Below are positions 1 through 49,000 of a DNA stretch of 64,000 bases, piece by piece. Below the pieces are notes generated by a model, which had not been told where the DNA came from, did not search any database, and was given only the letters and a program-made list of their open reading frames with translations. A program made the translations under genes and the position numbers. Numbering within the stretch: the first letter of the stretch is position 1; every line of letters starts with the position of its first letter. This DNA is from a virus. The stretch is from the IMG/VR virus record IMGVR_UViG_3300024981_000003; one strand, written 5' to 3'.

Positions 1-548
1 CGGCAGCCGAGCGGTTCGTTTCGGCCGAGCCCCTCCTCGGGCCGATCGACTTCACTCGCGTCACCGGCCACAGCGGTACGGTCTTCGACGCCTTGGTGCC
101 GTGGCGCCCGTGCCGGATCGGCGGAACTACGATTGAGCACGGCGCATCTACTCCAATTCTGGATTGGGTCATCGTCGGCGGCGAAAGCGGCAAAGGCGCG
201 CGCCCGATGCATCCGGACTGGGCGCGATCGATCCGCGATCAGTGCGGCGCCGCCGGCGTCGCCTTCTTCTTCAAGCAGTGGGGAGAGTGGGCCCCACAAA
301 TCGGCGCCGTCGACGGCTGGACGATAAACGACGATCCAGAGCAAAGCCGTTTTGATCATCGCGAATGGGATGAAGACGATCAGTGTTGGAGCGATGTATT
401 TCGCCCAATCTGGTGCGATTTCGAGGACGGCAATTACGACGAGGCGCAGACAGTCTCCCGTCTAGGCAAAAAGCGATCAGGTCGCCTGCTCGATGGCCGC
501 GAGTGGAACGAAATGCCGGACGTCACCGGGAAGGCGGTGGCGGCATGA
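1..548 (+). CDS. Phage Gp37/Gp68 (DUF5131) family protein, 5' end cut by window edge
   Basis: Frame 3 is open from nt 3. Family-typical strings RFVSAEPLLGPI, WVIVGGESG, RPMHPDW and FFFKQWGEW. Stop at 546-548. Confidence 0.75.
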   Translation, partial: AAERFVSAEPLLGPIDFTRVTGHSGTVFDALVPWRPCRIGGTTIEHGASTPILDWVIVGGESGKGARPMHPDWARSIRDQCGAAGVAFFFKQWGEWAPQIGAVDGWTINDDPEQSRFDHREWDEDDQCWSDVFRPIWCDFEDGNYDEAQTVSRLGKKRSGRLLDGREWNEMPDVTGKAVAA

Positions 549-1507
549 CACGAGCAACGCGAAAATCCGATCAAGACTGGGCCGCGCGCGACTTCGAAAA
601 GCATGCGACCAGCGCCGGTCCCGGATGGTCGTGGCTTTTCAGGAAGCCCGGATGTTCGGCCTATTATTTCCGCATCACGTGGGCGCCAGGAATTCTCGTC
701 TGCTCCGGCGATATCGGAGAACTCGTCGTTCGGCACTATTCTTTCGATGATCCTTGGAGCGCGGCGTCTTGGATCAACGGTGCTGGCTTCGATTATTTCA
801 TGGAGAAGACGCCGAAGAAGAAGGAATTCGACGCCGAAGCGACGGCGCGCGGGATCATCGAAGATGCGTATCGGCAGATGCGTGATGGGCTCGAGTACGA
901 TTGCTCGTGTCGGACCATCCCAAAGCTCATGAAGAAGATCGTCGAGGAGCATACCTATCTCGACGACGACGAAGATCCCGACGTACGGAAAGAAGCGTGC
1001 CGTGACCTGCTATCGCTCGCCGATTGCGGCGAATTCACCGCGGATCAGGCGTATGATCTGACCGGGGATTCCGAAGCGCTCCGCTACGACTACGTGTCGC
1101 ACTACGCCCACCGCTACATGGCCTTCAAAAAGTGGGGCGAGTGGATGTGGGCGAACGAGCCGCTGTGGCACAAGACCATTCGCCAGTGGCGCAGTCTCCA
1201 AGCGACCCGCAAAAGCTACCGCGACTACCCGATCATCTGGGCCCCGATCCGATACGTCAAATACGAGAACGGCAAACCCACAAATTACAACGGCCACAAA
1301 TTCTGGCGTTGGCACAAGTACGTCGGTCGCGAAGGTCTCACTTATTCCTATCGCGCGCTGCGCCCGTGGATCGCGTTCGGTCACGACATGACGCGTTTCG
1401 GGTTCTGGCGCGATCAAGGATCATCAACCGGCGATGATGGCGGGATGGATCGCTGGGGCCGGCCTCTGAAACCCGGTGATGGCTTTCGTGACGTGAGGCC
1501 GGCATGA
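545..1507 (+). CDS. Hypothetical protein (320 aa, Trp-rich)
   Basis: ATG at 545 overlaps the upstream stop (ATGA). Long ORF in the operon frame. No domain recognised. Confidence 0.6.
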   Translation: MTRATRKSDQDWAARDFEKHATSAGPGWSWLFRKPGCSAYYFRITWAPGILVCSGDIGELVVRHYSFDDPWSAASWINGAGFDYFMEKTPKKKEFDAEATARGIIEDAYRQMRDGLEYDCSCRTIPKLMKKIVEEHTYLDDDEDPDVRKEACRDLLSLADCGEFTADQAYDLTGDSEALRYDYVSHYAHRYMAFKKWGEWMWANEPLWHKTIRQWRSLQATRKSYRDYPIIWAPIRYVKYENGKPTNYNGHKFWRWHKYVGREGLTYSYRALRPWIAFGHDMTRFGFWRDQGSSTGDDGGMDRWGRPLKPGDGFRDVRPA

Positions 1508-1944
1508 GCAACTGGGACAGCCGCTTTATGGCACTCGCTGCTCATGTCGCGACGTGGTCGAAGGATCCGTCCACGAAGGTCGGCGCCGTCATCGTCCGGC
1601 CGGATCGAACTGTTGCATCGCTTGGCTACAACGGGCCGCCGCGTGGCGTCAGTGATGCGCTATCATTTGCCGATCGACATCGCAAACTGGCGCGCACCAT
1701 TCACGCTGAGCTGAATGCGATCCTATCCAGCCACGTGCCCGTCGCCGGCTACACGCTCTACGTCACGCTGCCGCCATGCGACCGTTGCGCCGCCCATATC
1801 GTACAGGCGGGCTTACGGCGCGTTGTGACGTCGGTTTCATCAGCGTCGGATTACCCGGACCGCTGGGCATTGGAGATCGCGGAAGCCAGGCAGATTTTCA
1901 TGGAAGCGGGCGTCGTCCTAGATGCCCAAGTGAGGGTGGCATGA
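1504..1944 (+). CDS. dCMP/cytidine deaminase (zinc-dependent)
   Basis: Zinc motifs HAELNA and PCDRCA. ATGA overlap with the upstream gene. Confidence 0.85.
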   Translation: MSNWDSRFMALAAHVATWSKDPSTKVGAVIVRPDRTVASLGYNGPPRGVSDALSFADRHRKLARTIHAELNAILSSHVPVAGYTLYVTLPPCDRCAAHIVQAGLRRVVTSVSSASDYPDRWALEIAEARQIFMEAGVVLDAQVRVA

Positions 1945-2636
1945 ACTTAGAAACCGCACTTCCGCTCGATTATGCCGTGCAGCCCAACCCGCCGCTGCGT
2001 CCGACGCTATTCGACGCGGATATTCGCACAAAGGCCGTGCAATCGATTGCGAAAGACGTGGCGGACTGGCTCGAAGAAGACGTCAGCGATGAGCTGGTAG
2101 AAATGCTGGCCGAGACGATGCCGTTCAGTCTCTTTATCGACGGCTTCAAATGGGCCGTTAAACTGCACGATAAATATGCTTTCGACGGTGATGCGCAGCT
2201 CGTCGAGATCCTAGAAGGCAATAATCTTTCAGGGATTTACCGCGAAGCCGTTAAGGCGTGGGTCGCGGCAAACAAGATCGCGCCGACGTTTCTCGTTGCC
2301 GCGTTCGGCGCGAGCGATGATCTCATGGAGTTTCGCGGTGCGATCTCCGATGAGCTCGGAGCCTGGAACGGCACGACGGCCTATCTCGATGACAAGGGCC
2401 TTTTGCAGAATAAATGCGGGCAAGATGATTGCCCTTATTTCGAGGAGTCGCGCGAAACGGCGCGCACGATTGAAGCGATCTGGGCCCCAGATAATGACAA
2501 CGTGTCTTGGGCCTATCAGACAGACATTCCGCACGCGACGTTTCTGATCAAGGAAGATGAAGACGAATTTTGCCGGGGCATCGTGTTCCGGCTGGCGGAC
2601 GCAACGCGCAAACAGGCAATCGAGGGAGCATTATGA
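1941..2636 (+). CDS. Hypothetical protein (acidic, 231 aa)
   Basis: ATG at 1941 overlaps the deaminase stop (ATGA). The track ORF 1776-2636 is trimmed to this coupled start. Confidence 0.6.
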   Translation: MNLETALPLDYAVQPNPPLRPTLFDADIRTKAVQSIAKDVADWLEEDVSDELVEMLAETMPFSLFIDGFKWAVKLHDKYAFDGDAQLVEILEGNNLSGIYREAVKAWVAANKIAPTFLVAAFGASDDLMEFRGAISDELGAWNGTTAYLDDKGLLQNKCGQDDCPYFEESRETARTIEAIWAPDNDNVSWAYQTDIPHATFLIKEDEDEFCRGIVFRLADATRKQAIEGAL

Positions 2637-2821
2637 GCGCCATGAAACGCCAGTTCGTCGCTGCTGCTGCAGCCGCTCTGCTCGCGGGCGGCGCATTCGC
2701 ACCGATCCACCATCGTGACGAGCCAGATTCCGTTCTCGAGCCGAAGTCCGACAAGCGTAAAGAGAAACGCAAGGCTCAGCGCAAGGCTCGAAAAGTCTCG
2801 CGGCTTGGGGTCAAGCGATGA
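2633..2821 (+). CDS. Small secreted or membrane-anchored basic protein (62 aa)
   Basis: Coupled ATGA start. N-terminal hydrophobic AAAAAALLAGGAFA followed by a Lys/Arg-rich tail. Confidence 0.5.
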   Translation: MSAMKRQFVAAAAAALLAGGAFAPIHHRDEPDSVLEPKSDKRKEKRKAQRKARKVSRLGVKR

Positions 2822-2994
2822 AGCCTGCCTGCAAATCCTGTGACCACGCCTTCTTGATCTTGGACGCCAAGGGCGTGCCCGAGCCAGAAATCGCATGCGC
2901 GCTGGATGGCGAACATCACGACAGACGTCACGCCTGTTCGAATTTCGGACGCGGAATCGAACTCGACAATAGTTGCAGCGACAGCAAAGGGTAA
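2818..2994 (+). CDS. Small Cys/His-rich protein (58 aa), possible zinc binder
   Basis: ATG at 2818 overlaps the upstream stop. Translation MKPACKSCDH...HACSNF...SCSD. Below the 60-aa track cutoff, translated by hand. Confidence 0.4.
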   Translation: MKPACKSCDHAFLILDAKGVPEPEIACALDGEHHDRRHACSNFGRGIELDNSCSDSKG

Positions 2995-2998
2995 TCCA

Positions 2999-3253
2999 AT
3001 GGGAGATATGCAGCCAATGCAGGTCTCGGTGGAAGAAGCCTGCCGCCTTATCGGCGTGTGCAAGCAGACGCTTTATCGTATGAAAGCCGATGGGCAGATC
3101 ACGATGAACAAAACGCGCGGCCGAACCCACATCCCAATGCATGAGATTACGCGCATCGTCGGAGTGCCCACGCTCGCTGTTGTGGGGGAGCCGGTGGGGG
3201 AACCGAAAAAACTTAGGACAAAAAAACGTAAGCTATTTCCGAAACATAAGTGA
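2999..3253 (+). CDS. xis: Excisionase / AlpA-type helix-turn-helix DNA-binding protein
   Basis: HTH string VSVEEACRLIGVCKQTLYRMKADGQI. Lies directly upstream of the integrase. Start uncertain (ATG at 2999, 3008 or 3017). Confidence 0.65.
   Translation: MGDMQPMQVSVEEACRLIGVCKQTLYRMKADGQITMNKTRGRTHIPMHEITRIVGVPTLAVVGEPVGEPKKLRTKKRKLFPKHK
3182..3205 (+). repeat. Tandem 12-mer pair GTGGGGGAGCCG GTGGGGGAACCG (candidate integrase arm-type sites, left arm)
   Basis: Read directly from the sequence. Related pair at 3393-3416. Lies in the 3' end of xis. Confidence 0.5.
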
Positions 3254-3293
3254 ATTATCAAGGCGGACACCCCTTCCGCCAGAAGTAATTCAC
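3250..3293 (+). promoter_or_regulatory. Nested inverted repeat in the AT-rich xis-int spacer (candidate attP core and/or terminator)
   Basis: GTGAATTA (3250-3257) pairs with TAATTCAC (3286-3293). These enclose GGCGGA (3262-3267) pairing with TCCGCC (3275-3280). Confidence 0.4.
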
Positions 3294-3392
3294 TGTACGT
3301 CTGATACAGTGGAAAATACTCTTGAAACCCAAACAAATAAGCCCTCAGTTCGTCCACACGGGTCACTCGGCGTCCCTGCCGAGCGCAGATCA

Positions 3393-3416
3393 GTGTGGGA
3401 ACCGGTGTGGGAACCG
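3393..3416 (+). repeat. Tandem 12-mer pair GTGTGGGAACCG GTGTGGGAACCG (candidate integrase arm-type sites, right arm)
   Basis: Perfect tandem duplication 23 nt upstream of the int start. About 200 bp from the related pair at 3182-3205. Confidence 0.5.
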
Positions 3417-3438
3417 GAAGAACTCAGTCGAGGGAACG

Positions 3439-4674
3439 ATGGCGCGCAGTCTCAACCTGCTGAATGCACGGGCTGTCTCTGCAACTTCAAAGGCAGGAAG
3501 GTATGCAGATGGTGGGGGGCTCTATCTTTTGGTTCGCCTGCGCGGGGACACGCCAGAGCGACTTTGGGTTTTTCGCTACAAACGTGGCGGTCGTGGCGAC
3601 AACCGCGAGGTGACGCTCAGCATCGGGCCGGCGCGCGACGTTTCGCTGGCTGAAGCGCGTGAGATCGCCGGCCGCTGCCGCAACCAACTCGCGAAACGGG
3701 GCGACCCGCGCGAAGAACTCGTTCGGACAAGCGGCATTCCGACATTCGGAGAATTCGCCGACGATCTGATCGGATCGATCGAGAAAGGCTTCAAGAACTC
3801 CAAGCACCGGCAACAGTGGCGGATGACGGTCGGTGACGCCTACTGCCGGTCGCTCCGTCGTCAGCAGATCAATCAGGTAACGACCGAGGACGTGCTCGGC
3901 GTCCTAAATCCGATCTGGTCGGAGAAACCCGAAACCGCGGCGCGCATCCGCGGCCGCATCGAGCGCGTGCTCGACGCGGCCAAAACCCGGCGCCTACGCT
4001 CCGGCGAAAATCCGGCGCGCTGGCGTGGTCATCTGGATCAGTTGCTCCCGCCGGTCAAAAAACTCGTGCGCGGCCACCATGCAGCGCTTCCCTGGTCCGA
4101 CCTTCCAGATTTTGCGGCGCGGCTGCGACAACTCACGAGCGTCTCGGCGCTCGCACTCGAGTTCACCATTCTCACCGCGACGCGAACCAATGAATCGGCA
4201 CAAGCCCCTCTCTCCGAGATCGACAAGAAGGGGCGTGTCTGGGTTATTCCGAAAGAGCGCATGAAGCGCGACCGCGAACACCGTGTTCCACTGACCGAAC
4301 GCTGCATCGCGATTGTCAACGAGATGGAGAAGATCGGCAGCGATTGGCTGTTTCCCGGACCATCGCAGCGAAAGCCACTGTCGCTTCACGCTATGGCGGA
4401 GTGTCTCAAAGGCTTCGATGTCGAAGCCACTGTTCACGGGTTCCGGTCGACCTTTCAAGATTGGGTCGAAGACGCGACCGAATTCGCGCCGGAACTCGCC
4501 GACTTAGCGCTTGCCCATGTCATTGCCGACAAGACGAAACGTGCATACCGGCGCGGCGATGCGCTCGAGCGCCGTCGATCCCTGATGGACGCTTGGGAAA
4601 CCTATTTCCTGTCCGCGATCAAATCCGACGCGAACAACGACGATCCTGTAACCGACAGCGTAGAGGCAGCATGA
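3439..4674 (+). CDS. int: Tyrosine integrase (P4-like, DUF4102-type N-terminal arm-binding domain)
   Basis: N-terminus GRYADGGGLYLLVRLRG..WVFRY. Catalytic region ATRTNE...HGFRSTFQDW...LAHV...AYRRGD (R, HxxR, H, Y). ATG at 3439 chosen over the upstream track start. Confidence 0.9.
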   Translation: MARSLNLLNARAVSATSKAGRYADGGGLYLLVRLRGDTPERLWVFRYKRGGRGDNREVTLSIGPARDVSLAEAREIAGRCRNQLAKRGDPREELVRTSGIPTFGEFADDLIGSIEKGFKNSKHRQQWRMTVGDAYCRSLRRQQINQVTTEDVLGVLNPIWSEKPETAARIRGRIERVLDAAKTRRLRSGENPARWRGHLDQLLPPVKKLVRGHHAALPWSDLPDFAARLRQLTSVSALALEFTILTATRTNESAQAPLSEIDKKGRVWVIPKERMKRDREHRVPLTERCIAIVNEMEKIGSDWLFPGPSQRKPLSLHAMAECLKGFDVEATVHGFRSTFQDWVEDATEFAPELADLALAHVIADKTKRAYRRGDALERRRSLMDAWETYFLSAIKSDANNDDPVTDSVEAA

Positions 4675-4689
4675 TGATTGGAGAACACT

Positions 4690-6306
4690 ATGGCTCATCC
4701 GATTCCGGAGAGCGCGCTTGACGACCGGCTGGCCTTCGTCGGGACTTCGGGCTCGGGCAAGACCTACGCCGCTGGGACAGCCGTCGAGAGGATCCTGACA
4801 ACCGGCGCGAAGGTTGTCGTCGTCGATCCTCTCGACGTCTGGTACGGCCTGCGCGTCAAAGCTGACGGCGTGCGTCAAGCCTTCCCCGTCATCATCTTCG
4901 GCGGCGCGCACGCGGATATTCCGATCACCGAGCACGCGGGCAGCGTTATCGGCGAAGCCGTCGCTTCGATGTCAGAGAGTTGTATCGTCTCACTCTCGAC
5001 GCTCGGCTCGAAGTCGGCTGAGCGCCGGTTCATGCTGGCATTTCTGGAAGCGCTCTATCGCAAGGCGACGGGCGAACCGTTCCATCTGATTTTCGACGAA
5101 GCGGATTTGTGGGCTCCGCAGCGTGCGTTCGAACCGCAGTTGCAAAGCCTGATGGAGAACATCGTCCGCCGCGGGCGGGTCAAGGGGTTCATCCCGTGGC
5201 TGATCACGCAACGGCCGGCCGTGCTCTCCAAAGACATCCTGAGCCAAGCCGATGGCCTCATCGCCATGAAGCTCACATCGTCCCAGGACCGGAGCGCCCT
5301 GCAGGCGTGGATCGAAGGCCAGGCGGACCGCAAGGATGAAAAGCAGATGCTGTCCCGCCTGCCGCGTCTCAAGCGCGGCGAAGGCGTGATCTGGCTTCCG
5401 GGATTGCCCGTCCTCGAGGAGGCTACCTTCCCCGAGAAGAAAACCTTCGACAGTTCGCAAACACCGAAGCGCGGCCAGACCAAGCGCACCGCCGCGCTCA
5501 AACCGATCGATCTCGGCGCCCTCACCGCGCGCCTTGCCTCGATCGAGGCTGAACGTGGCAAGCCCGCCAAGGGCAAAGCGCCGAGCCCGGCCGGTGCCCC
5601 CGCTGCTTCGCCGGATCCTGCCGCCGTGCGCGTCGCCGAAGACCGCGCCCGCGCCGAAGGTTTCGAGCAAGGCAAGCGTGTCGGCCGAACGGAAGGCTAT
5701 CAAGATGCGGTTCGCGAGGCGAAAGCGGCGCTGAGCTCGATGCAGCCCAATGAACCGAGCCTCGCGGCGCTTCCAGCTCGCCCAGCGCCCAAAAGCGCGC
5801 CTGCGGCCGCTCCCGCGCCGCTGGCCTCGACTTCCGGCGACGTACGGCTTCCGGTCGGCGAGCGTGCCGTTCTCACCGTGTGCGCCCAGTATGCGAACGG
5901 CGCAACGCGATCGCAAATCACCGTTCTAACGAATCTCAAGCGATCGACGCGCGACCGTTACATCCTCTATCTCAAGCAAAAGGGATTGGTGGACACCGTT
6001 GCGGATCGCATCGTCGCGCTGTCGGCCGGAAGGATTGCCCTTGGCAGTGACTACCAGCCGCTACCAACGGGCGCGGCGTTGCGCGCGAAAATGATCGCGG
6101 AACTGCCCGACGGCGAAGCCCGCATTTTAGCCGTGCTTTGCGACGCCTATCCTCGGTCGGTTTCCCGCGACCGCATCGAACAAGAAGCCAACCTCAAGCG
6201 GTCAACGCGGGATCGTTACATCCTTTATTTGCGCGCCCGCGAACTAGCGCACATCACGCCCGAAGGCGTCCGCGCGAGCGATGATCTGTTTTCGGAGGCC
6301 GCATGA
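4690..6306 (+). CDS. HerA/FtsK-superfamily P-loop ATPase with two C-terminal winged-helix repeats
   Basis: Walker A GTSGSGKT and Walker B HLIFDEADLW. SD GGAGA lies 7 nt before ATG 4690. C-terminus carries the duplicated motif NLKRSTRDRYILYL (nt about 5935 and 6193). Confidence 0.7.
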   Translation: MAHPIPESALDDRLAFVGTSGSGKTYAAGTAVERILTTGAKVVVVDPLDVWYGLRVKADGVRQAFPVIIFGGAHADIPITEHAGSVIGEAVASMSESCIVSLSTLGSKSAERRFMLAFLEALYRKATGEPFHLIFDEADLWAPQRAFEPQLQSLMENIVRRGRVKGFIPWLITQRPAVLSKDILSQADGLIAMKLTSSQDRSALQAWIEGQADRKDEKQMLSRLPRLKRGEGVIWLPGLPVLEEATFPEKKTFDSSQTPKRGQTKRTAALKPIDLGALTARLASIEAERGKPAKGKAPSPAGAPAASPDPAAVRVAEDRARAEGFEQGKRVGRTEGYQDAVREAKAALSSMQPNEPSLAALPARPAPKSAPAAAPAPLASTSGDVRLPVGERAVLTVCAQYANGATRSQITVLTNLKRSTRDRYILYLKQKGLVDTVADRIVALSAGRIALGSDYQPLPTGAALRAKMIAELPDGEARILAVLCDAYPRSVSRDRIEQEANLKRSTRDRYILYLRARELAHITPEGVRASDDLFSEAA

Positions 6307-6485
6307 TCGTCATCGACATCTGGGGCGGCGAAGAAAGCCAGGATCACGTCGCGCGCTTTCTGCGGCCTGTCGACGAAGCGTTAGAGATTTCCCGCCGCGA
6401 ACTCGCGGCCGGATTTCTCGTCAATCTCCGTGGCGAGATTGCGTGGGGTCAAGAATGCGAATTCGACGAGCGCCCCGTGCATTGA
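6303..6485 (+). CDS. Small acidic hypothetical protein (60 aa)
   Basis: ATGA overlap with the ATPase stop. Sits between the ATPase and rtcB. Confidence 0.45.
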   Translation: MIVIDIWGGEESQDHVARFLRPVDEALEISRRELAAGFLVNLRGEIAWGQECEFDERPVH

Positions 6486-6496
6486 AGGAACGAATA

Positions 6497-7849
6497 ATGG
6501 AACGATCTGATCCCTACAAAAACCGGGCGCGCGAACTCGCCATAGCAGCCGGTCATCCCGATCCAGACGCCAAAGTCGATCGCGGACCTGGAATTAAGCC
6601 GTGGCCGGCTTGGTGCCAGTTCAGACAAGCCGCACGAGATGAGCATCTCGCGATCGAAGCGACTGAAGCCGCGAAGTCGATCGCCAATCTCCGCCCGCAG
6701 CAGCCGCAATATCAAAATAGTCCGATCAAGGTAATCGGCTCGCACGATGACGCGACCGTTCAACAGATGAAGAATTGCATGAGCGTTGGCAATGCCGTCG
6801 CCGGCGTCATCTGCGCAGATGGCCATCTCGGCTACGCACAACCGGTCGGCGGCGTCATCGCATATGAAAAGCAGATTTCGATTTCCGGTGTCGGCTTCGA
6901 TATCGGATGCGGAAACATGGCAGCCCGTCTCGACACGAAGTTTTCGGACATCGCGACGCGCGTCCCCGAGATCGCGGCTGATATCCATCGCATCATCTCA
7001 TTCGGAATCGGGCGACGTAATGCCGAGCATGTCGAGCATGAACTGTTCGACGATGGCGACGCCTGGAAAATGTCCGACATGGAGACCTACCGACCAAAGG
7101 CGGTCGGCCAGCTCGGGACTGTCGGCTCCGGCAACCACTATGTGGATCTTCTGCGCGATGGCGACGACAACGTCTGGATTGGAGTGCACTTCGGATCGCG
7201 GGGACTCGGGCATACGAGCGCCACGCGATACTTGAAGGCGGCGGGCGGCAAAGACGGTCTCAATGTCCCGCCCGCGATCGTAGATGAGGATTCCGAACTC
7301 GGCGCTCGCTATATCGCGGCGATGGAACTGGCTGGTCGCTATGCCTATGCGGGCCGGGAATGGGTTGTAGATCGCGTCCGCAAAATCATCGGCGGAAATC
7401 TTCTTGAATCCGTCCACAACCATCACAACTACGCTTGGCGCGAACGTCATGGTGATCGCGATCTCTGGGTTGTGCGCAAGGGCGCGACACCCGCTTTTCC
7501 CGGCCAGAAGGGCTTCGTCGGTGGGTCCATGGGTGATGATTGCGTGATCCTGGAGGGCGTCGACAGCGAAGATGCAAAAGCATCGCTGTATTCGACCGTG
7601 CATGGCGCCGGCCGGCTCTTCGGCCGCAAGGAAGCCAAGCGGCGGTTCGTGCGGCTTCAGATGGATGAGTGGTTGAACGGGCGCGGCGTGACGTTGATCG
7701 GCGCCGATCTCGATGAAAGCCCAATGGCGTACCGCCGTCTCGACGACGTGCTGGCGCACCACGCATCCTCAGTTCGCGTTCTCCATCGCTTACGTCCGTT
7801 CGTCGTCGTCATGGCGAGCCCGGAGGAGGCGGACCCATGGAAGGACTAA
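6497..7849 (+). CDS. rtcB: RtcB-family RNA 3'-phosphate ligase with about 75-aa N-terminal extension
   Basis: RtcB signature strings ADGHLGY, GFDIGCGN, GSGNHYVDL, HFGSRGLGH, HNHHNYAW, GSMGD and VHGAGR. Confidence 0.9.
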   Translation: MERSDPYKNRARELAIAAGHPDPDAKVDRGPGIKPWPAWCQFRQAARDEHLAIEATEAAKSIANLRPQQPQYQNSPIKVIGSHDDATVQQMKNCMSVGNAVAGVICADGHLGYAQPVGGVIAYEKQISISGVGFDIGCGNMAARLDTKFSDIATRVPEIAADIHRIISFGIGRRNAEHVEHELFDDGDAWKMSDMETYRPKAVGQLGTVGSGNHYVDLLRDGDDNVWIGVHFGSRGLGHTSATRYLKAAGGKDGLNVPPAIVDEDSELGARYIAAMELAGRYAYAGREWVVDRVRKIIGGNLLESVHNHHNYAWRERHGDRDLWVVRKGATPAFPGQKGFVGGSMGDDCVILEGVDSEDAKASLYSTVHGAGRLFGRKEAKRRFVRLQMDEWLNGRGVTLIGADLDESPMAYRRLDDVLAHHASSVRVLHRLRPFVVVMASPEEADPWKD

Positions 7850-7853
7850 TCGC

Positions 7854-8063
7854 ATGACCTCCGACGAAACGACGACGCCGCGGCGCGGACCATCGCAAAT
7901 CGAAGCAATCGTCTTTCCGTATTCGGTGCCGGAGCCGCCGCCGGCGAACGGCATGACGCTTTCCGAATTCTGGGTGAACGCGCTCAACGCTGAACGGCTC
8001 CGGGGATCATCGTTGGATGCTGTGAACGTGCGCGCGTGGCTCAACTGGATCAATCGCGGATGA
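7854..8063 (+). CDS. Hypothetical protein (69 aa)
   Basis: ATG at 7854 lies just after the rtcB stop, in the frame of track ORF 7713-8063. Confidence 0.5.
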   Translation: MTSDETTTPRRGPSQIEAIVFPYSVPEPPPANGMTLSEFWVNALNAERLRGSSLDAVNVRAWLNWINRG

Positions 8064-9712
8064 ACTCTTTGAAAGGTCGCGGCATGGCGAGCCAATCCGA
8101 AGAAATGCCGACAGATATTAGAACTGGGGGCGATTTCTGGGCTGAGAAGCGCGACGGGCGCTGGCAACTCCAGATGAGGCACCGTGGACCCGGCAGTAGT
8201 TTTTGCGTCGCCCAGATCAATCATTGGGCCGACAATTCAGAAGCGCTCACGACGCGCATCGTCACCGCCTGCAACGCCTATGAGCCAATGAGAGAGGCGC
8301 TTTCTAAGATCGCAAACTGCGGCCAATCGCAAGAACCGGATCACTGGCAGTTTCGCGTAATGGCGCGAGATACATCTAATGCCGCTCTCTCCACCCTCCC
8401 TGTAAACGACCGGCAGACATCAGATGATGCCGAGAGATTGCGGAAGGCTACTGCGGCCATCGAAGACGACGATCTGCGCAACGATCTCGCCGATATTTGC
8501 ACGCAAGCTCTGGCCGATGCACCTGAAGTCCTGGCCGACCCGCGCGGGCTCGATGTGCTGCTCGATGCTATCGTTTGTCTGTTCCGCGACAAAGCCCATG
8601 CCGCTCTTAAAGGCGTGCCTCAGCCTGCAACCCCGAAGGAAGCCGCAATGACCGAAGCTCAGATCAAGCACATGGTTGACCGCTTTCTGATGTGGAAGCT
8701 TCCGGAGCATTTCAATCCGGACGACGGCATCAGCTTTGACCCCGTCGCTAGCAAAGGGACGCCTTACGAGTTTCGGCGCTCGCCATCCGGAACGAACCTA
8801 TTCAGCGCCGAGCAAGCGACGGCAATGGTGCGCCACATGCTCGAAGGCTTGCCTCAGCCTGCAAGCGACATCAAGCCGTGGACATTCCAAGATCACGTCA
8901 AGCCCTGGATGCAGGAATGCTTCGGCCCAGAAATTGCGGCCGATACGGTAGAGCGCAATCACCGCTTCCTCGAAGAAGCTCTCGAACTCGTGCAATCCCT
9001 CGGCTGCTCGAAGGCGGAGGCGGTCGCCCTCGTCGATTACGTCTATGACCGACCAGTTGGCGAGCCGAAGCAGGAAGTCGGCGGCGTGATGGTAACGCTC
9101 GCAGCGCTCTGCCTCGCCAACGGCTTCGACATGCACAGCCTCGGCGATGTCGAACTTGAGCGCGTCTGGGGAAAGATCGACGCGATACGCGCCAAGCAGG
9201 CGTCGAAGCCGAAGAACTCGCCGTTGCCCGCTCAGCCTGCAAGTGATGACTATCAAGCTGACGCCGGTGCACCTGCTCTGTTCGAGAACGTCAACGGGGC
9301 AGAGGGATGGCAGCCTGAAGGCTCAGAAAACTTAATGGCGCTCCTAGATGCAATCCAACGCCTGGAGAAAGAACTTCCTGGTTGGTGGTGGAGCGTCGGC
9401 TCTTGCCACGTCTCGGCGGATGCTTCGATCGGGCCAATCAACCGACCATGGACGCATGCTTCCATTGGCCCCGATAGTGCTGGCCGCGATGCACATCTGT
9501 TGGAGGATAAGTTATTCGACGGCGGTTTCCATTGCGATCTTCGCCAACCAGCGACGTGTGCGGAATCATTGAACCAGGCAATTGATGAAGCACTTGCTGC
9601 GCGCCGTGATGCTGAGTTGAATTTCTCGAACGACGCCGAGCGCGACGCTGTCAGCTTGAAACCCGATACTTCCTCTCAGCCTGCAAGCGATAAATCCGGA
9701 GAGGGCAAATAG
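8060..9712 (+). CDS. Multidomain protein with central MazG-like NTP pyrophosphohydrolase domain
   Basis: ATGA-coupled start. Strings ERNHRFLEEALELVQSLG and EVGGVMVTLAALCLANGFD resemble a MazG helical core. Domains are separated by QPA(S/T) linkers. Confidence 0.55.
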   Translation: MNSLKGRGMASQSEEMPTDIRTGGDFWAEKRDGRWQLQMRHRGPGSSFCVAQINHWADNSEALTTRIVTACNAYEPMREALSKIANCGQSQEPDHWQFRVMARDTSNAALSTLPVNDRQTSDDAERLRKATAAIEDDDLRNDLADICTQALADAPEVLADPRGLDVLLDAIVCLFRDKAHAALKGVPQPATPKEAAMTEAQIKHMVDRFLMWKLPEHFNPDDGISFDPVASKGTPYEFRRSPSGTNLFSAEQATAMVRHMLEGLPQPASDIKPWTFQDHVKPWMQECFGPEIAADTVERNHRFLEEALELVQSLGCSKAEAVALVDYVYDRPVGEPKQEVGGVMVTLAALCLANGFDMHSLGDVELERVWGKIDAIRAKQASKPKNSPLPAQPASDDYQADAGAPALFENVNGAEGWQPEGSENLMALLDAIQRLEKELPGWWWSVGSCHVSADASIGPINRPWTHASIGPDSAGRDAHLLEDKLFDGGFHCDLRQPATCAESLNQAIDEALAARRDAELNFSNDAERDAVSLKPDTSSQPASDKSGEGK

Positions 9713-9980
9713 ATGAGCTACGAAGCATGGGGCGACGGCGACCAAGACGACGGACGCGGCTTTACCGAAGATCGCATGGAAGAATTCTTTGCCCTCGGCG
9801 CTGCTCAGATGCGCGAAATGTTAGCGCGGTTTGTTGAACAAGGCGGCGACACCAGAACCGCCAACAGTATCCGCCTCAACTGGAATCCTTCATGGGGGAA
9901 GGACCCAGGCCGTCCCATTCGAATTGCTGGCGACGCGTGGGATGCGGACAATATTGACGTCGAACAGCCTGCAAGCGAAG
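8617..9980 (+). repeat. Five dispersed copies of CAGCCTGCAA(G/C)(C/T)GA (junction motif J1, encodes QPA[ST])
   Basis: Copies at 8621-8630, 8855-8868, 9233-9246, 9678-9691 and 9964-9977. All in the same orientation and reading frame context. Confidence 0.7.
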
Positions 9981-10012
9981 CGTGGAAGCTCAGCACTGAT
10001 GAGGTGCTGTGA
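9713..10012 (+). CDS. Hypothetical protein (99 aa)
   Basis: ATG one nt after the upstream stop. Acidic. Contains a fifth QPAS junction motif. Confidence 0.55.
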   Translation: MSYEAWGDGDQDDGRGFTEDRMEEFFALGAAQMREMLARFVEQGGDTRTANSIRLNWNPSWGKDPGRPIRIAGDAWDADNIDVEQPASEAWKLSTDEVL

Positions 10013-10013
10013 C

Positions 10014-10277
10014 ATGAGCAAACTCGGGCTTGTCGACACCGTGAAGGTCGAGATCGAGGTGCAAGGCATCGACCTAATCGCCCTCAAGAAGCTGTCATTG
10101 GTATCGCACGCTTTGGCAAAGAAGATCGGCGGAATGGCCGGGCAAGAGCAAGCAACGCTGGCCAGCGTCCTCGACGATGTAATCCGACAGATAGAGATCG
10201 GATGCGCCACCTCGCTCATGGACGACAACCGCGCTGCTCTAAGCGCCCCCTCTACAGATGCAAAGGTGCGGGGATGA
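10014..10277 (+). CDS. Hypothetical protein (87 aa)
   Basis: ATG at 10014 directly follows the upstream stop. Ends in the APST junction element. Confidence 0.5.
   Translation: MSKLGLVDTVKVEIEVQGIDLIALKKLSLVSHALAKKIGGMAGQEQATLASVLDDVIRQIEIGCATSLMDDNRAALSAPSTDAKVRG
10243..10277 (+). repeat. Junction element J2, copy a (3-nt insertion variant)
   Basis: GCGCCCCCTCTACAGATGCAAAGGTGCGGGGATGA. Contains the SD, the ATG of the next gene and the stop of the previous gene. Confidence 0.65.
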
Positions 10278-10720
10278 CGAAACCTCAACGCATCCAATTG
10301 AAGCGCACCAAGGGCTGGAAGATGCCGCCCAACACCGTGAAAGTCGATCGCTCGACGAGGTGGGGCAACCCTTGGCGCATTGGCGCCAACATGAGCGATG
10401 ACGACGCTCCTGGCGGAGACATCAACGGTAACGGCGAAGTGCAACCAAAAGGTTGGCGCACATGCAGGACCGCCGCAGATTGCGTGCAGGCATTTCGCAA
10501 CAGTGTCGATTGGGACCCGGACGCGCCGTGGGGTATCGGCAATCTAGTTTGCCAAGGCGGCTTTGGTCCAGAACACAAGAACCGCAAGACGATCCGAGCC
10601 GAACTTCGCGGCAAGAACCTCGCCTGCTGGTGCAAGCTCGGAGAGCCGTGCCACGCCGACGTTCTTCTTGAAATCGCCAACGCTGATGAAGCGCCCTCTA
10701 CAGAAAAGGGGCGGGGATGA
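10274..10720 (+). CDS. DUF4326-like protein
   Basis: Strings VDRSTRWGNPW and LACWCKLGEPCHADVL are typical of DUF4326. ATGA-coupled start. Confidence 0.6.
   Translation: MTKPQRIQLKRTKGWKMPPNTVKVDRSTRWGNPWRIGANMSDDDAPGGDINGNGEVQPKGWRTCRTAADCVQAFRNSVDWDPDAPWGIGNLVCQGGFGPEHKNRKTIRAELRGKNLACWCKLGEPCHADVLLEIANADEAPSTEKGRG
10691..10720 (+). repeat. Junction element J2, copy b
   Basis: GCGCCCTCTACAGAAAAGGGGCGGGGATGA. Confidence 0.7.
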
Positions 10721-11469
10721 AAGATCGCAGGACCGTGTGCTGGTTTAGCGCGGGCGCGGCATCGGCCGTAGCGACGAAGCTGACGCTCGCCAGCAATCCA
10801 GATGCCGTTGTCGCCTATTGCGAGACGGGCTCGGAGCATCCCGACAACGAGCGGTTTATTGCCGATTGCGAACGCTGGTTCGGGAAGCCGGTCGAACGCC
10901 TGAAATCAGACCGCTACGTCGATACGTGGGATGTTTTTGAGAAGCGCCGCTATCTCGCTGGCAACGACGGCGCGCCCTGCACGGTCGAACTCAAGGTTAT
11001 GCCGCGCCTCGCATGGCAGCAGCTAACCGACGAGCATGTCTTTGGGTACACAGCGGACGGCGCTGACAGCAAGCGGGCCGACCGGCTACGACACAACTAT
11101 TTTGAGTTGACGATCAAGACGCCGCTCATCGAGAGGGGGCTGGATAAAGCGGCGTGCCTTGCATTGGTTCAAGGTGCCGGGATTAGGCTTCCGATTATGT
11201 ACAGACTTGGGTTCGGCAATAATAATTGCATCCCCTGCGTTAAGGCCACATCTCCGGATTATTGGGCGCTCGTTCGGAAGGTGTTTCCGTCCGCATTTTG
11301 GCGCATGGCAAAACTCTCGCGCGAACTTGGCGTTCGTCTCACGCGCATCAACGGCGAACGCATCTTCATTGACGAGATACCGGACGATTGGCCCACCGCC
11401 GATCCCATTCAGCCCGCCTGCGACTTCCTTTGCCACATCGCAGAGCAAGACCTTGAGGCTGCCGAATGA
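10717..11469 (+). CDS. PAPS-reductase-like (PP-loop ATPase superfamily) protein
   Basis: N-terminal VCWFSAGAASAV (variant PP-loop) and the overall pattern of phage PAPS-reductase-family proteins. ATGA-coupled start. Confidence 0.6.
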   Translation: MKDRRTVCWFSAGAASAVATKLTLASNPDAVVAYCETGSEHPDNERFIADCERWFGKPVERLKSDRYVDTWDVFEKRRYLAGNDGAPCTVELKVMPRLAWQQLTDEHVFGYTADGADSKRADRLRHNYFELTIKTPLIERGLDKAACLALVQGAGIRLPIMYRLGFGNNNCIPCVKATSPDYWALVRKVFPSAFWRMAKLSRELGVRLTRINGERIFIDEIPDDWPTADPIQPACDFLCHIAEQDLEAAE

Positions 11470-11484
11470 CCAACGCTGAATTGC

Positions 11485-11516
11485 GCGCCCCCTCTACAGA
11501 AAAGGGGCGGGGATGA
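11485..11516 (+). repeat. Junction element J2, copy c (intergenic)
   Basis: GCGCCCCCTCTACAGAAAAGGGGCGGGGATGA. The upstream gene already ends at 11469. Confidence 0.7.
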
Positions 11517-11845
11517 GCGATAGACCCCTATGCTCAATAGAGCGTGATGACCGGAATTTCTGGCACATCAACGTCTACTACGCTGCCGATTGGAGCGAAG
11601 TACCGGAAGGCACACCGCCAGACGCGTTCGCGACAACCGAGGACGGGGCATCCGTAGATGATGCTATCGAACTGGCGCGCAGCAAGTTTCAGCCCTCTAC
11701 GATCTGCGTTTGGGACACCTGCATCGATTGTAGTGGCGTTGGCGAAGACGCCGAAGGGTTTACGTGCTGCGAGTGCAATGGCGAAGGTATTAGTTGCGAG
11801 GACATCGGCGACGGAGCCCCCTCTACTAATGGAGCGGTGAAGTGA
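11513..11845 (+). CDS. Cys-rich hypothetical protein (DnaJ-like CxxCxGxG zinc ribbon)
   Basis: String CIDCSGVGEDAEGFTCCECNGEG. Preceded by the junction element that contains the SD. Confidence 0.55.
   Translation: MSDRPLCSIERDDRNFWHINVYYAADWSEVPEGTPPDAFATTEDGASVDDAIELARSKFQPSTICVWDTCIDCSGVGEDAEGFTCCECNGEGISCEDIGDGAPSTNGAVK
11814..11845 (+). repeat. Junction element J2, copy d (5' half only)
   Basis: GAGCCCCCTCTACTAATGGAGCGGTGAAGTGA. Shares GCCCCCTCTAC and the stop/start overlap. Confidence 0.45.
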
Positions 11846-45915: not shown

Positions 45916-46079
45916 CAGCCGACCTTGATGATGACCCGTGGCGGATTGCGTCGGAAGCGCACGCACATCGCAACAGCCTCGTCGACTGCGGCACGGTAGT
46001 CGTGCATCCCGGTTTTGACGAGGTATTCGGCGCAGCGCCGCTCAATGTCGATGTCGGCCACGAGCGTGTGCGTTTTCAT
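45915..46079 (-). CDS. Small hypothetical protein (54 aa)
   Basis: Hand-translated MKTHTLVADIDIERRCAEYLVKTG... TGATG overlaps at both ends fill the gap exactly. Confidence 0.4.
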   Translation of the reverse strand: MKTHTLVADIDIERRCAEYLVKTGMHDYRAAVDEAVAMCVRFRRNPPRVIIKVG

Positions 46080-49000
46080 CAGCGCAGATCCGCACGCGTG
46101 AAGCCGCTGAACGTCCGGCCCTTCGCCGCTTGCGCGGCCGCCTGGACAGTCGGATTGGCCCAGCCTCGGCGTGCTCCGCTCGTTCCCGACGCTGGCGCGT
46201 CCGACGAGTCCTTCGCCGGGGCACGGTATGCAGTATTCGCCGCGTTAAACGCGTCGTGCACGGCGACACCGGTATTCACGGCCATGCCGGGAAGCGACAT
46301 ATCCCACGCGCCCTTGGCGGCCGCCTTGATGATGCCGGTCGCGCCTTCGCCGTGGCGATAGGCGGCGATGCCTTCCGACACGGCGCCGAAGCCCATGAGA
46401 GCGACAGACGTCGCCGGGATCGCCTTGGCCGCCGTCATACCGGCGCGCATCAGGCCGCCCGTGACTGCAGCGGTGCCGACGGTGAAGCCTGCAAGCGTTA
46501 CGCCGCCTTTAACGCCTTCCTTAGCCGCTTCCTTGATCTGGCTGCCGGCATCGCGGCCTTCGGCCTTCGCCTTCGACGATGCCACGATCATTGCGGCGCC
46601 GATCGCGATCGGCGCAAGCACGCCCGCGACCTTACGGACACCGCGCTTGGCGGGTTTCGCAGCGATTTTATCGGCAGCCGGAGCGCGTTCAGGCTTCGGC
46701 GCGTTCATCTTGGCGCGCATGCGATCGGCGACACCGTTCGATGGTTTGGTGAGCGCCTCGGTGCGCAGTTCCGCATCGCCCTTCTGACTGTCGCCGGCAC
46801 GCATGCGGTTGAGATAACGACGCTCGCGATCCGCGCGGACTTGGTCTCCAATGGACGCCCATTTCTTAGCATCCTCATGCCGCTGCATTTCGGTCTCGCT
46901 GAGCATTCCGTGTTTTGCCTTCACGTCTTGCGTCAGTGTTTTGAGAGTTGCCTCGGCGGCATCGCCACGCGGCGTTCCCGGCGTCGTGGTCTGCGACTCC
47001 TTAATCGCATTTTGCAGCCGCGCCACATCGGCCATGCGAGCGTGCGCTTCGAGGCGATCGATATCGACTTGGTTCCGCTTGACGAGATCAAGTCCGATGG
47101 CCACGCGCTGCTTCGAGGCTCCGGGCGACGTACCCTTGAGCGCTTTGGCGATCTCTGCGTGCGCGCGCGCCGTCTGATTGCGGGCCTCAATCACCTTGAT
47201 CGGATCGGGAAGGTTCGATGCCTTCGCCGGCGCTTTCGCCCTTGATTTGCGGTTGGTGTTGATCGCCTCCAGGTTCGCGGCGTTCTGCGTTCCGCGCTTT
47301 CCCGACGTCACCTTATCGATTGCGGCGCTGACGTCCTTCATGATGCGGTCGCGACCTTCCTGAAACTTGCCCGGAAGGCCCGCCTCTTCGGCCGACGTCA
47401 ACGCACGAAACGCGCCGACGGTCTGTGCCTTTCGCACCATCGACCGGCCCGTCGTATAGGCCCGCTGCTCGATGGCTTTGATCATCGCCGCTTTCGAGGT
47501 CCGCGCGGCGGCCTTCGAACCGACGACCTGCTCGTGAACAGCCTGGATCTCTTGTTTCGAAAGACCCGCGAGGCGCTTCATGGGATCACTAGGCGCAACG
47601 CTTTCACTCGCGACCTGGCGCACGATGTTGGCGAACGGTTTGCGTGGCGCTGAGATGCGCTTCACTTCATCGTCGACGCGGCGAACGCGATCAACAATGT
47701 CCGTCTGCTGCCGGGATGAAGAGAATAGCCCGTGGTCGGCTGCATCGCCGGTCCGGCCCTTGGCCGCCTTCTTGCGCGATTCCGCTGCGATCTTATCTTT
47801 CGTCGTCGCCTTCGGCATCATGTCGCCCTGGCCATCGTCGATTGACATGCGGACTTTGCCGGCGGTGCTTTCAACTTTGCGATGCATGTAGCGCGACGCC
47901 CCATAAGCGTTGTCGCGACGATCGACTGAACGGATCGCCGACTTGAGCGTCTTCGCCGTGCCGACGACCTTCTTCGTCTGACGATCAACGATCTCGTAGG
48001 CAGCTCCCGATTTGGGCTGTTTCATGTCGTCGCCTTTCGCATTTGCCTTGCGGGCGTTTGCACTCGCGGCACGCGCTTTATCGTCCCAGACGTGATGCTC
48101 GCCAGCCGCCTTCGGCTCGATCGAGAACATCGACGTCTGGTTCTGATTGACCATCTGATGCATCTCGGGCGCATCGCCCGTGAGCGCCCGCATGCCGCCG
48201 GATTTCAGCGCATCGCCGACAGCCTTGACGAACGAGCGCGCTGCGACTTGCGGCTTCTTGCCTTCCGCCATCTGGAGGGCCGCCGTCTCGAGCATGCTGG
48301 AAACCGGCCCGCGGTTCTTTGCGAGCCGTTCTACCAGAGCGGCTGTGGTCCCCGCCTCCGAGGCGCGCGCCGCGTTCGTTTCGTGACTGAGGCGGTTACC
48401 CGCCTCCTCGATAGTGTGAGACTCACGATCGAGCAGCGCAAAAATTCGCTTGTCCGACTTGAGCGATCCGAGAGCCTTGTCGAGAACAGCGGCGCGTTCG
48501 GCGATGAGTGAACGCGTCTTCGTTTCCTCACCGAACAGCGAATTCTGTGATTCATGGATCGAACCGGCACTAAGTGCTTGATCGACATAAAGTCCGGCGT
48601 GCTGCGCCGAAGTGATATTGGCTTTGGCCATTTCGGCAAGCATATCGGCATGGCGTGTGGTTTCTCCAATGCGGGCGCCGACCTGTGCGGCGTACTCCGG
48701 CTTGATGACCCCGCCGACAACCATGTCGAAGGCCGGCTTCGAGAGCTTCGCAAGGTTAGCCGCTTCGCGGACTTTCGCGTCCGACATCGGCACGGAACCG
48801 TTGACGAGGTCCGGCCGCTCGCGCATCACCTTCGCCATATCGAGCGCTTGGCCCGACGATTCCTTGATGTTCTTCAAAGCCGCGTACGCGTAGACATCGC
48901 GCGGCGACCAGCCATCGCGCTCGCGCAGCACGTAGGCGTCCATGTTGATCTTCTGACCTTCGGACGCGAGCCGCTTGGCGAGACCGAGGCGCTGATGACC

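Follow-up and report, generated by a model that had tools for sequence, protein, structure and literature searches.

Three neighbouring genes of a viral genome encode an FtsK/HerA-type P-loop ATPase, a 60-aa acidic protein and an RtcB RNA ligase. Do they form one RNA-repair system, or does each act on its own? The question comes from a sequence-only reading of a 64,000-nt stretch of DNA, hereafter the window, from the virus record IMGVR_UViG_3300024981_000003 of IMG/VR, in which the three genes were proposed to be a functionally linked trio. A real trio would amount to a new machine for phage RNA repair, in which an ATPase partners the ligase, and its rejection averts a misleading 'system' annotation. 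We consider it probable that the genes are independent cassettes lying side by side by chance, namely an RtcB acting alone, a targeted DNA motor and an orphan. The features on which the argument turns are listed in Table 1.

Table 1. Integrase-proximal features of the window
Feature	Coordinates	Strand	Basis
Tyrosine integrase	3436..4674	+	Pfam Arm-DNA-bind_3, Phage_int_M, Phage_integrase
ATPase, 538 aa: compact FtsK/HerA-type P-loop core, helical and disordered linker, two winged-helix domains	4690..6306	+	
ATPase core, aa 1-250	4690..5439	+	Walker A/B, RRGR and TQRP columns; Foldseek
Winged-helix repeat 1, aa 389-450, with NLKRSTRDRYILYL	5854..6039	+	AlphaFold2 (AF2) pLDDT ~90-96; DNA repeat D1
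Winged-helix repeat 2, aa 461-529	6070..6276	+	AF2; DNA repeat; alignment
Acidic orphan protein, 60 aa	6303..6485	+	ATG overlaps ATPase TGA as ATGA
RtcB 3'-phosphate/5'-hydroxyl RNA ligase, 450 aa, catalytic site intact	6497..7849	+	
RtcB N-terminal extension, aa 1-76	6497..6724	+	Conserved in chromosomal homologues; HMMER; AF2

The phage and its early operon

The window derives from a temperate phage that infects Hyphomicrobium denitrificans and has a tail of the contractile type, the host being assigned from the flank of an integrated prophage copy (L084). The match of this copy to the window starts at 3268 and covers only what follows; the attP crossover region lies at about 3268, and the phage genome extends partly beyond the window. 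The integrase gene is directly upstream of the ATPase gene, with 15 nt to the ATPase start, and the ATPase, 60-aa and RtcB genes are the integrase-proximal part of a long co-directional early operon. The genes were thus correctly described as phage-borne and early, the window being a temperate tailed-phage genome. TerL (56021-57748), TerS (57771-58556) and a portal protein are encoded elsewhere in the window, and those of its early genes that were scanned yielded no DnaB, primase or polymerase. A promoter and terminator scan of positions 2600-10200 gave nothing exceeding shuffled expectation. Since relatives have an Acb2/Tad1-like gene downstream of int, this region resembles an island of accessory or anti-defence genes in the phage group; the Acb2-like gene itself is absent from the window.

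The 60-aa ORF has GGAGG 8 nt upstream of its start and encodes a protein of pI 4.5 (D+E, 13; K+R, 6). Compared with a 92%-identical copy in a close relative (L095), 18 codons differ silently and 5 by replacement, a sign of purifying selection that marks the ORF as a real gene. Its homologues form two clusters only among 5.8 billion protein clusters, and no Pfam, PHROG, NCBIfam or PADLOC model matches it. The ATGA overlap and the acidity remarked on earlier are both there; such coupling is nothing special, since the gene table shows 4-nt overlaps between most genes of the operon. The protein is an orphan restricted to this lineage and may act as a small acidic modulator, with no demonstrable tie to ATPase or RtcB.

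The ligase and its N-terminal extension

RtcB matches PF01139 at 217.7 bits (E 4.5e-64; cut-off 27), residues 90-438 aligning to profile positions 1-424 of 426, and its AF2 model (pLDDT 79) matches Pyrococcus horikoshii RtcB (4DWQ) with E 1.5e-25 and TM 0.63-0.67. The metal ligands and histidine nucleophile (D135, C138, N213/H214, H231, H309/H310 and H369, which we take to be the catalytic residues from established RtcB structures) are intact, and they align with the P. horikoshii motifs DINCG, GSGNHF, VHTGSRGLGH, AHN and CHGAGR. Family profile, fold and active-site residues therefore agree with the identity first assigned from metal-binding and histidine motifs. By its sequence the enzyme is catalytically intact, and GTP- and Mn-dependent 3'-P/5'-OH ligase activity is predicted. 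For the E. coli-type equivalog PRK09588, whose cut-off is 407 bits, the score is only 112, and neither rtcA nor rtcR was found near rtcB in the window or at the loci of chromosomal homologues.

About 76 residues stand ahead of PIKVIG, where the RtcB core starts. They are modelled as a short helix (residues 8-17) and a long one (38-61) with pLDDT 80-90, and are coding: 34 codons differ silently and 10 by replacement from those of the relative L088. Chromosomal RtcB proteins of Hyphomicrobium and Bradyrhizobium are 75-82% identical to the phage protein over the full length, extension included, and at the homologue loci examined the chromosomal gene is solitary in ordinary chromosomal surroundings. 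Sequence comparison thus shows that proteins of a large cellular, Hyphomicrobiales-type RtcB subfamily normally begin with this extension. The sequence-only reading was right that some 75 residues are added, and they are missing from the nearest isolated-phage homologues; as a phage novelty the extension does not stand, because the chromosomal proteins share it. The presence of the cellular, extended RtcB in temperate Hyphomicrobiales phages suggests host-phage exchange and RNase-based conflicts in these bacteria.

An exhaustive HMMER search with the extension returned 116 representatives, essentially all at RtcB N-termini. Nearly all matched proteins are short (most below ~270 aa) or RtcB-sized, with the hit at or near the N-terminus; the short ones are read as rtcB gene fragments at contig ends, and two multi-stretch matches resemble low-complexity hits. 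We considered an independent domain and rejected it, since matches are confined almost wholly to RtcB N-termini. Our literature search found no paper on an extended RtcB subtype.

RtcB enzymes reseal RNA breaks with 2',3'-cyclic-phosphate and 5'-OH ends. The phage enzyme, being of the cellular Hyphomicrobiales type, most likely works alone. It would reseal such breaks in tRNA or rRNA when they are made by RNase-type defence or toxin effectors, and from the established chemistry this repair would sustain translation during infection or in the lysogen. Counter-defence is accordingly a plausible role, as a candidate only. The accepted rationale for phage RNA ligases is that they mend breaks inflicted by RNases (PMC7824862), and our search found no paper with an experimental test of a phage RtcB as counter-defence.

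The ATPase and its neighbourhoods

The ATPase ORF runs from an ATG at 4690 to a TGA ending at 6306. Walker A (GTSGSGKT, aa 18; 4741-4764) and Walker B (HLIFDEAD, aa 132; 5083-5106) are present as the sequence-only reading gave them, followed by RRGR at aa 160-163 and TQRP at aa 173-176, and the columns of all four are invariant in an alignment of 33 homologues. A linker of ~130 aa, helical and disordered, separates the core from two winged-helix domains (wHTH), which AF2 places at aa 389-443 and aa 461-529 with pLDDT >90 and which give weak profile matches to HTH_45, HVO_A0261_N and Sso10a; a conserved C-terminal tail, ASDDLF, follows the second. The two C-terminal repeats of about 86 aa that had been noticed are these tandem domains in the model: NLKRSTRDRYILYL occurs at aa 415 and aa 501, an interval of 86 aa, over a DNA repeat at 5932-5970 and 6190-6228 (spacing 258 nt). 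This coding duplication is the sole repeat within the gene, and no iterons or other repeated candidate binding sites were found in or near it.

Walker A, Walker B (DEAD), an arginine-finger segment, [ST]QRP and a RecA-like core place the N-terminal domain, by sequence and modelled fold, in the FtsK/HerA superfamily. Foldseek, proposed earlier as a check, gave HerA, B204 and FtsK, all with probability 1.00. For the core, HerA matches at E 4e-8, STIV2 B204 with TM ~0.7 and the ATPase of haloarchaeal virus PH1 with TM 0.73; the FtsK structure is a weak fold match (E 2e-5, TM 0.24-0.31). No family within the superfamily claims the protein. The FtsK_SpoIIIE Pfam domain does not match, and the HerA equivalogs NF040819, NF042943 and NF042944, with cut-offs of 800-970 bits, give 32-35 bits, over aa ~128-238 only. 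Only 17 residues stand ahead of Walker A, and since this motif starts at residue 18 there is no room for a HerA-type N-domain (HAS-barrel). Neither the window nor a set of 114 immediate neighbours of ATPase homologues yielded a NurA, Sir2 or DUF4297 partner. PADLOC models of defence HerA and MADS mad8 match the core at E 7e-17 and 5e-13, the latter over almost its whole length; of the other five adjacent proteins scanned, none matched a PADLOC model, those of the remaining mad genes included.

Two further identities were rejected. A terminase or packaging ATPase is suggested by the label 'terminase large subunit' on phrog_2666 (E 4.5e-22) and by the B204/PH1 fold, but packaging is provided for by a TerL, TerS and portal that the phage encodes separately, which rules the ATPase out as the packaging enzyme; nor is it the only packaging NTPase of a structural module, its gene lying in the early operon. 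An RtcR-like regulator of rtcB would be an AAA+ sigma-54 activator, which the ATPase is not, and there is no co-occurrence with RtcB in the neighbourhoods surveyed. The family exceeds 2,000 proteins in phages, prophages and plasmids, the same core being encoded by actinobacterial and haloarchaeal plasmids. Mobile elements carry members of this large, uncharacterised family as lone, self-sufficient genes. No paper describing such an architecture was found in the literature. Being abundant in mobile elements and without known function, the family is a reasonable target for simple genetic study.

Neighbourhoods of 6-8 kb, retrieved by peptide pattern, were surveyed at 150 ATPase homologue loci (80 in genomes, 70 in IMG/VR viral contigs) and at 80 IMG/VR viral RtcB loci, 41 of them with the extension; co-occurrence was counted at neighbourhood level. 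RtcB is adjacent at none of the 150 ATPase loci and within 8 kb at none of the 80 genome loci. It occurs near the ATPase homologue in 2 of the 70 viral loci, where RtcB is in each case a distant form (32% identity) ~4 kb away. None of the 80 RtcB loci has an adjacent ATPase or 60-aa gene, and RtcB is likewise missing from the vicinity of the five next-closest ATPases (62-64% identity). When flanking ORFs were clustered all against all, no conserved neighbour of either gene emerged, and in a Pfam census of the 114 immediate ATPase neighbours any one family had at most 4 hits; in some elements ERF, ParA-like, RepC or resolvase genes are near. Recurrent co-localisation across diverged genomes, the mark of a multi-gene system, is thus missing. 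The sequence-only reading had stated that its trio would fail if ATPase and rtcB did not co-occur in related genomes, and in this survey they do not.

The closest relatives hold the pieces in pairs. In L088 and L089 the ATPase gene (87%) is followed directly by RtcB (92%), the 60-aa gene being precisely missing, and in L088 the ATPase stop and RtcB start share one base (TAATG). In L095, known from a 10-kb contig, an unrelated 207-aa gene precedes the 60-aa gene (92%) and RtcB (92%), in that order, with no ATPase there.

Two points speak for a lineage-limited trio, in which RtcB would be loaded, localised or regulated by the ATPase, alone or together with the 60-aa protein: the genes share one direction and are tightly packed (the ATGA overlap, then an 11-nt gap), and since the adjacency of ATPase and RtcB is kept, stop and start overlapping, in relatives as close as 87%, a lineage-specific partnership keeps some small chance. 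We think it very improbable, given the empty survey, the replacement of the ATPase in L095, the lack of the 60-aa gene in L088, the solitary chromosomal RtcB with the same extension, gene overlaps that are the norm in this operon, and ATPase domains of DNA type. It is likewise unlikely, if less extremely so, that the ATPase is a prophage defence or superinfection-exclusion protein and RtcB a gene that benefits the lysogen against ribotoxins, rather than a lytic counter-defence. The best matches of the core are indeed defence proteins (HerA and mad8 in PADLOC, Sir2-HerA and DUF4297-HerA in the PDB), and in the prophage both genes sit at the end, beside int. Yet no Sir2, NurA, DUF4297 or other mad gene adjoins here or in relatives, HerA equivalog scores stay at or below 35 bits, and the genes belong to the long early operon rather than to a separate moron unit, with no promoter-like site in the region scanned.

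A replication-initiation or genome-segregation protein, whose winged helices would read an origin or partition site while the motor melts or moves DNA, has a similarly low probability in our view. Many initiators pair a tandem wHTH with an NTPase, the scanned early genes yielded no DnaB, primase or polymerase, and some homologues have the replication and partition-type neighbours named above. Against this, the gene has no iteron-like repeats in or near it, a close relative (L095) does without the ATPase at this place on its 10-kb contig, which would be odd for an essential function, and the portion of the phage genome outside the window may hold replication genes.

We therefore return to independent cassettes as the preferred reading. 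Invariant motifs and fold point to the ATPase as a ring-forming FtsK/HerA-type motor on dsDNA, and by analogy to the FtsK gamma domain and Streptomyces TraB its two winged helices probably guide it to specific DNA; motifs, fold and winged helices together make DNA the likely substrate, not RtcB or RNA. A bolder proposal, which we regard as rather doubtful, is that the ATPase represents a class of single-gene mobile-element DNA motors and that the RtcB N-terminus is a targeting or regulatory module. As modelled, such motors may consist of a minimal FtsK/HerA core joined by a coiled linker to tandem winged helices that read sequence, with a conserved ..DDLF tail at the C-terminus, and they might drive a step of mobile-element biology as yet unassigned to any protein, e.g. 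by positioning the genome in a site-directed way or activating the recombinase encoded next to them. The Hyphomicrobiales-specific N-terminus could stand in for archease- or RtcR-type control.

Comparison with known systems

With E. coli RtcB (rtcBA operon) and P. horikoshii RtcB the phage enzyme has in common the fold, the Pfam family, the Asp/Cys/His ligands and the histidine nucleophile; it differs from them in ~65-76 extra N-terminal residues and in having no rtcA, rtcR or archease neighbour. RtcB-like ligases are encoded in 680 phage records, e.g. those of mycobacteriophages and Sinorhizobium phage AP-16-3, and like this one are phage-borne RNA repair enzymes of an early or accessory region. 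The proteins of AP-16-3 and Mwe-JY26 are 61-62% identical to it in the core but are without the N-terminal extension. In phage T4, tRNA repair by Pnk and Rnl1 counters PrrC; the chemistry here is instead of RtcB type (3'-P plus 5'-OH), a different pathway.

The ATPase shares with FtsK and Streptomyces TraB the FtsK/HerA P-loop core, TQRP, an arginine-rich segment and C-terminal winged helices, but its core is far smaller (~250 aa), it has no membrane anchor, and two wHTH copies stand behind a linker. Defence HerA proteins (Sir2-HerA/Nezha, DUF4297-HerA), HerA-NurA and mad8 are its best sequence and profile matches, from Walker B to the sensor region; unlike them it is without a HAS-barrel-sized domain or a nuclease or Sir2 partner, and it scores far under the family cut-offs. 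Structurally nearest are the A32/B204/PH1-type packaging ATPases of tailless membrane-containing viruses (TM ~0.7 over ~200-240 residues), from which it is set apart by its tailed phage, its early-operon gene and its winged-helix domains of DNA-binding type.

Co-occurrence of the three genes

The sequence-only reading raised the idea that the adjacent genes for an ATPase, an acidic 60-aa protein and RtcB in the early operon might work together. Every statement it made about their sequences was correct and its gene identifications stand, but the functional unit does not: the ATPase and rtcB fail to travel together across related genomes, the result that the reading itself had named as refuting, and the pieces are shuffled in the closest relatives.

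Co-occurrence was examined from both sides. An alignment of 33 ATPase homologues was used to retrieve 80 loci from bacterial assemblies (one genome per species) and 70 from viral contigs of IMG/VR, taking in flanks of at most 8 kb. Within these flanks RtcB was found at none of the 80 bacterial loci and at two of the 70 viral loci, where it is in both cases divergent (32% identity) and separated from the ATPase by about 4 kb; the five next-closest ATPases placeable on contigs (62-64% identity) had no RtcB nearby. Eighty IMG/VR loci of RtcB, 41 with the N-terminal extension, had neither an adjacent ATPase nor the 60-aa gene, and two had partial ATPase-like matches >5 kb away. When flanking ORFs were clustered, neither ATPase nor RtcB proved to have a conserved neighbour, and among 114 genes immediately next to the ATPase no Pfam family was hit more than four times (resolvase, integrase, ParA-like and similar).

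The most telling evidence comes from the closest relatives. In contigs L088 and L089 RtcB (92% identical) comes straight after the ATPase (87%), the 60-aa gene being cleanly absent, while in contig L095 an unrelated 207-aa protein replaces the ATPase and is followed by the 60-aa gene (92%) and RtcB (92%). Since most genes of the early operon are joined by four-base overlaps (gene table), the ATGA overlap between the ATPase and 60-aa ORFs carries no special weight. An ATPase-RtcB partnership limited to this lineage is unlikely but conceivable, because the pair persists in one close relative. We conclude that the trio is three independently mobile cassettes; further work might pay off only for the ATPase family and for the N-terminus of RtcB.

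Relatives L088 and L095 also carry, 0.5-1 kb downstream of RtcB, a metallophosphatase and an Acb2/Tad1-hairpin family gene (L088:3713-4078; L095:2951-3316), which has no copy in the window. This family is a sponge for cyclic-nucleotide defence signals, and the two genes near RtcB hint at an anti-defence island in the int-proximal region.

Genome layout and integration

The window covers most of a temperate tailed-phage genome, whose long early operon of plus-strand genes spans the excisionase-like gene, the integrase and then the trio. Public assemblies contain this phage in two forms, which differ in what lies left of int. Contigs L085-L087 have phage genes there, as in the window, while the integrated L084 has host metG, holB, tmk and genes for a PBP5-type carboxypeptidase and a DPBB/SPOR-domain protein. 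Judged by its proteins, the L084 flank is that of Hyphomicrobium denitrificans: entries deposited for this species include exact copies of the holB product, and metG shares a 90% cluster with strain ATCC 51888. L084 and the window agree from 3268 onward but not before it, putting the attP crossover near that point; at 1-3253 the window has the excised or circular gene order and L084 the integrated one. Because both forms are found, the phage is an active temperate one. It is also seen in many metagenomes, since 29 blocks of the contig collection list its ATPase.

Two 12-nt tandem pairs flanking the divergence point are probably arm-type binding sites for the integrase. A composite motif, GCCCCCTCTACAGA ... 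AAAGGGGCGGGGATGA, is repeated at one gene junction after another and terminates in ATGA, where stop and start overlap. It could serve these genes as a common ribosome-binding or coupling element, or mark the edge of modules swapped in mosaic exchange. CAGCCTGCAAGCGA is translated into a recurring QPAS(D/E) peptide; the 558-aa protein that contains it has no Pfam match, and its PHROG matches are only to families of unknown function.

Features of the window (plus or minus strand where assigned)
Feature	Position	Strand	Remark
DUF5131 (Gp37/Gp68)	93-548		accessory early, phage-typical
dCMP deaminase	1504-1944		accessory early, phage-typical
HTH_17 excisionase-like gene	2906-3253	+	early operon
Tandem pair, GTGGGGGAACCG x2	3182-3205
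Tandem pair, GTGTGGGAACCG x2.1	3393-3417
Tyrosine integrase	3436-4674	+	early operon; trio comes next
ATPase	4690-6306	+	538 aa
DNA repeat in ATPase gene	5932-5970 / 6190-6228
ATPase C-terminus	6277-6303
60-aa ORF	6303-6485	+
RtcB	6497-7849	+	450 aa
CAGCCTGCAAGCGA x4	8855-9978		spacings 288-444 nt; ORF 8036-9712 and next ORF
DUF4326, then PAPS-reductase-like	10274-11469		accessory early, phage-typical
Composite motif	10245-10277, 10691-10720, 11487-11516, 11816-11829
Structural/lysis module	17.5-58.5 kb	-	TerS, TerL, portal, prohead protease, major capsid, tape-measure-like, Mu-type baseplate proteins, GH108 lysin
1338-aa ORF	46079-50095	-	between portal and protease; no Pfam match

RtcB and the 60-aa protein

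RtcB was recognized correctly (PF01139, 217.7 bits); its predicted structure has the RtcB fold, and the metal ligands and histidine nucleophile are all conserved. The extension, about 76 residues ahead of the core start as had been noted, is real but not a phage invention. It is coding sequence, with 34 silent and 10 replacement codon changes against L088, and more than a hundred full-length relatives of 445-458 aa share 75-92% identity across all 450 residues, including chromosomal copies in Hyphomicrobium facile, Hyphomicrobium spp., Bradyrhizobium ORS278 and B. oligotrophicum. At the H. facile and ORS278 loci rtcB stands by itself among ordinary chromosomal genes, and none of rtcA, rtcR, archease and ATPase accompanies it. 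Phage copies form a tight group (92% identity), 78-82% identical to Hyphomicrobium RtcB, about the distance of the Hyphomicrobium genes among themselves, and slightly further from Bradyrhizobium RtcB. The first 78 residues, searched exhaustively with HMMER, matched essentially only RtcB N-termini; AlphaFold2 predicts a short helix (8-17) and a long one (38-61) with good confidence, and a literature search on the extension found no paper. Most likely RtcB acts alone, as a host-type RNA-repair (counter-RNase) function.

The 60-aa ORF is acidic (pI 4.5) and starts, as described, at the ATG of the ATGA holding the ATPase stop, with GGAGG upstream. Its 18 silent and five replacement codon changes against the 92%-identical L095 copy indicate purifying selection. 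With two homologue clusters among 5.8 billion, the protein is an orphan.

The ATPase family

The motifs reported for the ATPase are present, with GTSGSGKT at residue 18, HLIFDEAD at residue 132 and NLKRSTRDRYILYL twice, 86 residues apart. More than 2,000 proteins have this architecture in common, an abundant, unstudied mobile-element family. Walker A/B, RRGR and TQRP are invariant among the 33 aligned homologues, indicating an active and probably ring-forming enzyme. The last residues, R-A-S-D-D-L-F-x-E-A-A, include an A-x-x-x-L-F conserved across the family, and this tail looks like a short docking motif for a partner. Adjoining the homologue P0018, at L249:3387-5124, are an IS1595 transposase and two genes that together resemble a defence module, one for an AAA_15/AAA_21 ATPase and the other DUF3226.

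In the model (pLDDT 80) ~250 residues form a compact core, and a linker that is helical and disordered leads from it to two winged-helix domains predicted with confidence. Matches of the core include HerA structures (E about 4e-8) and the PADLOC HerA and mad8 profiles, and a defence role is one rival reading. HerA proper was rejected: equivalog scores reach 32-35 bits where the cut-offs lie at 800-970, a HAS barrel would not fit, and no effector partner is present. The core is also found on actinobacterial and haloarchaeal plasmids. A role in replication or segregation is the other rival. Phage terminase was rejected as well, TerL and TerS being encoded in the minus-strand module. We infer a DNA motor that would be steered by its own winged helices; repeated candidate binding sites for it were looked for and none was found. 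In superposition its core comes nearest to two minimal packaging ATPases, those of STIV2 and of haloarchaeal virus PH1 (TM about 0.7), and the FtsK gamma domain and TraB are the models for the proposed winged-helix targeting.
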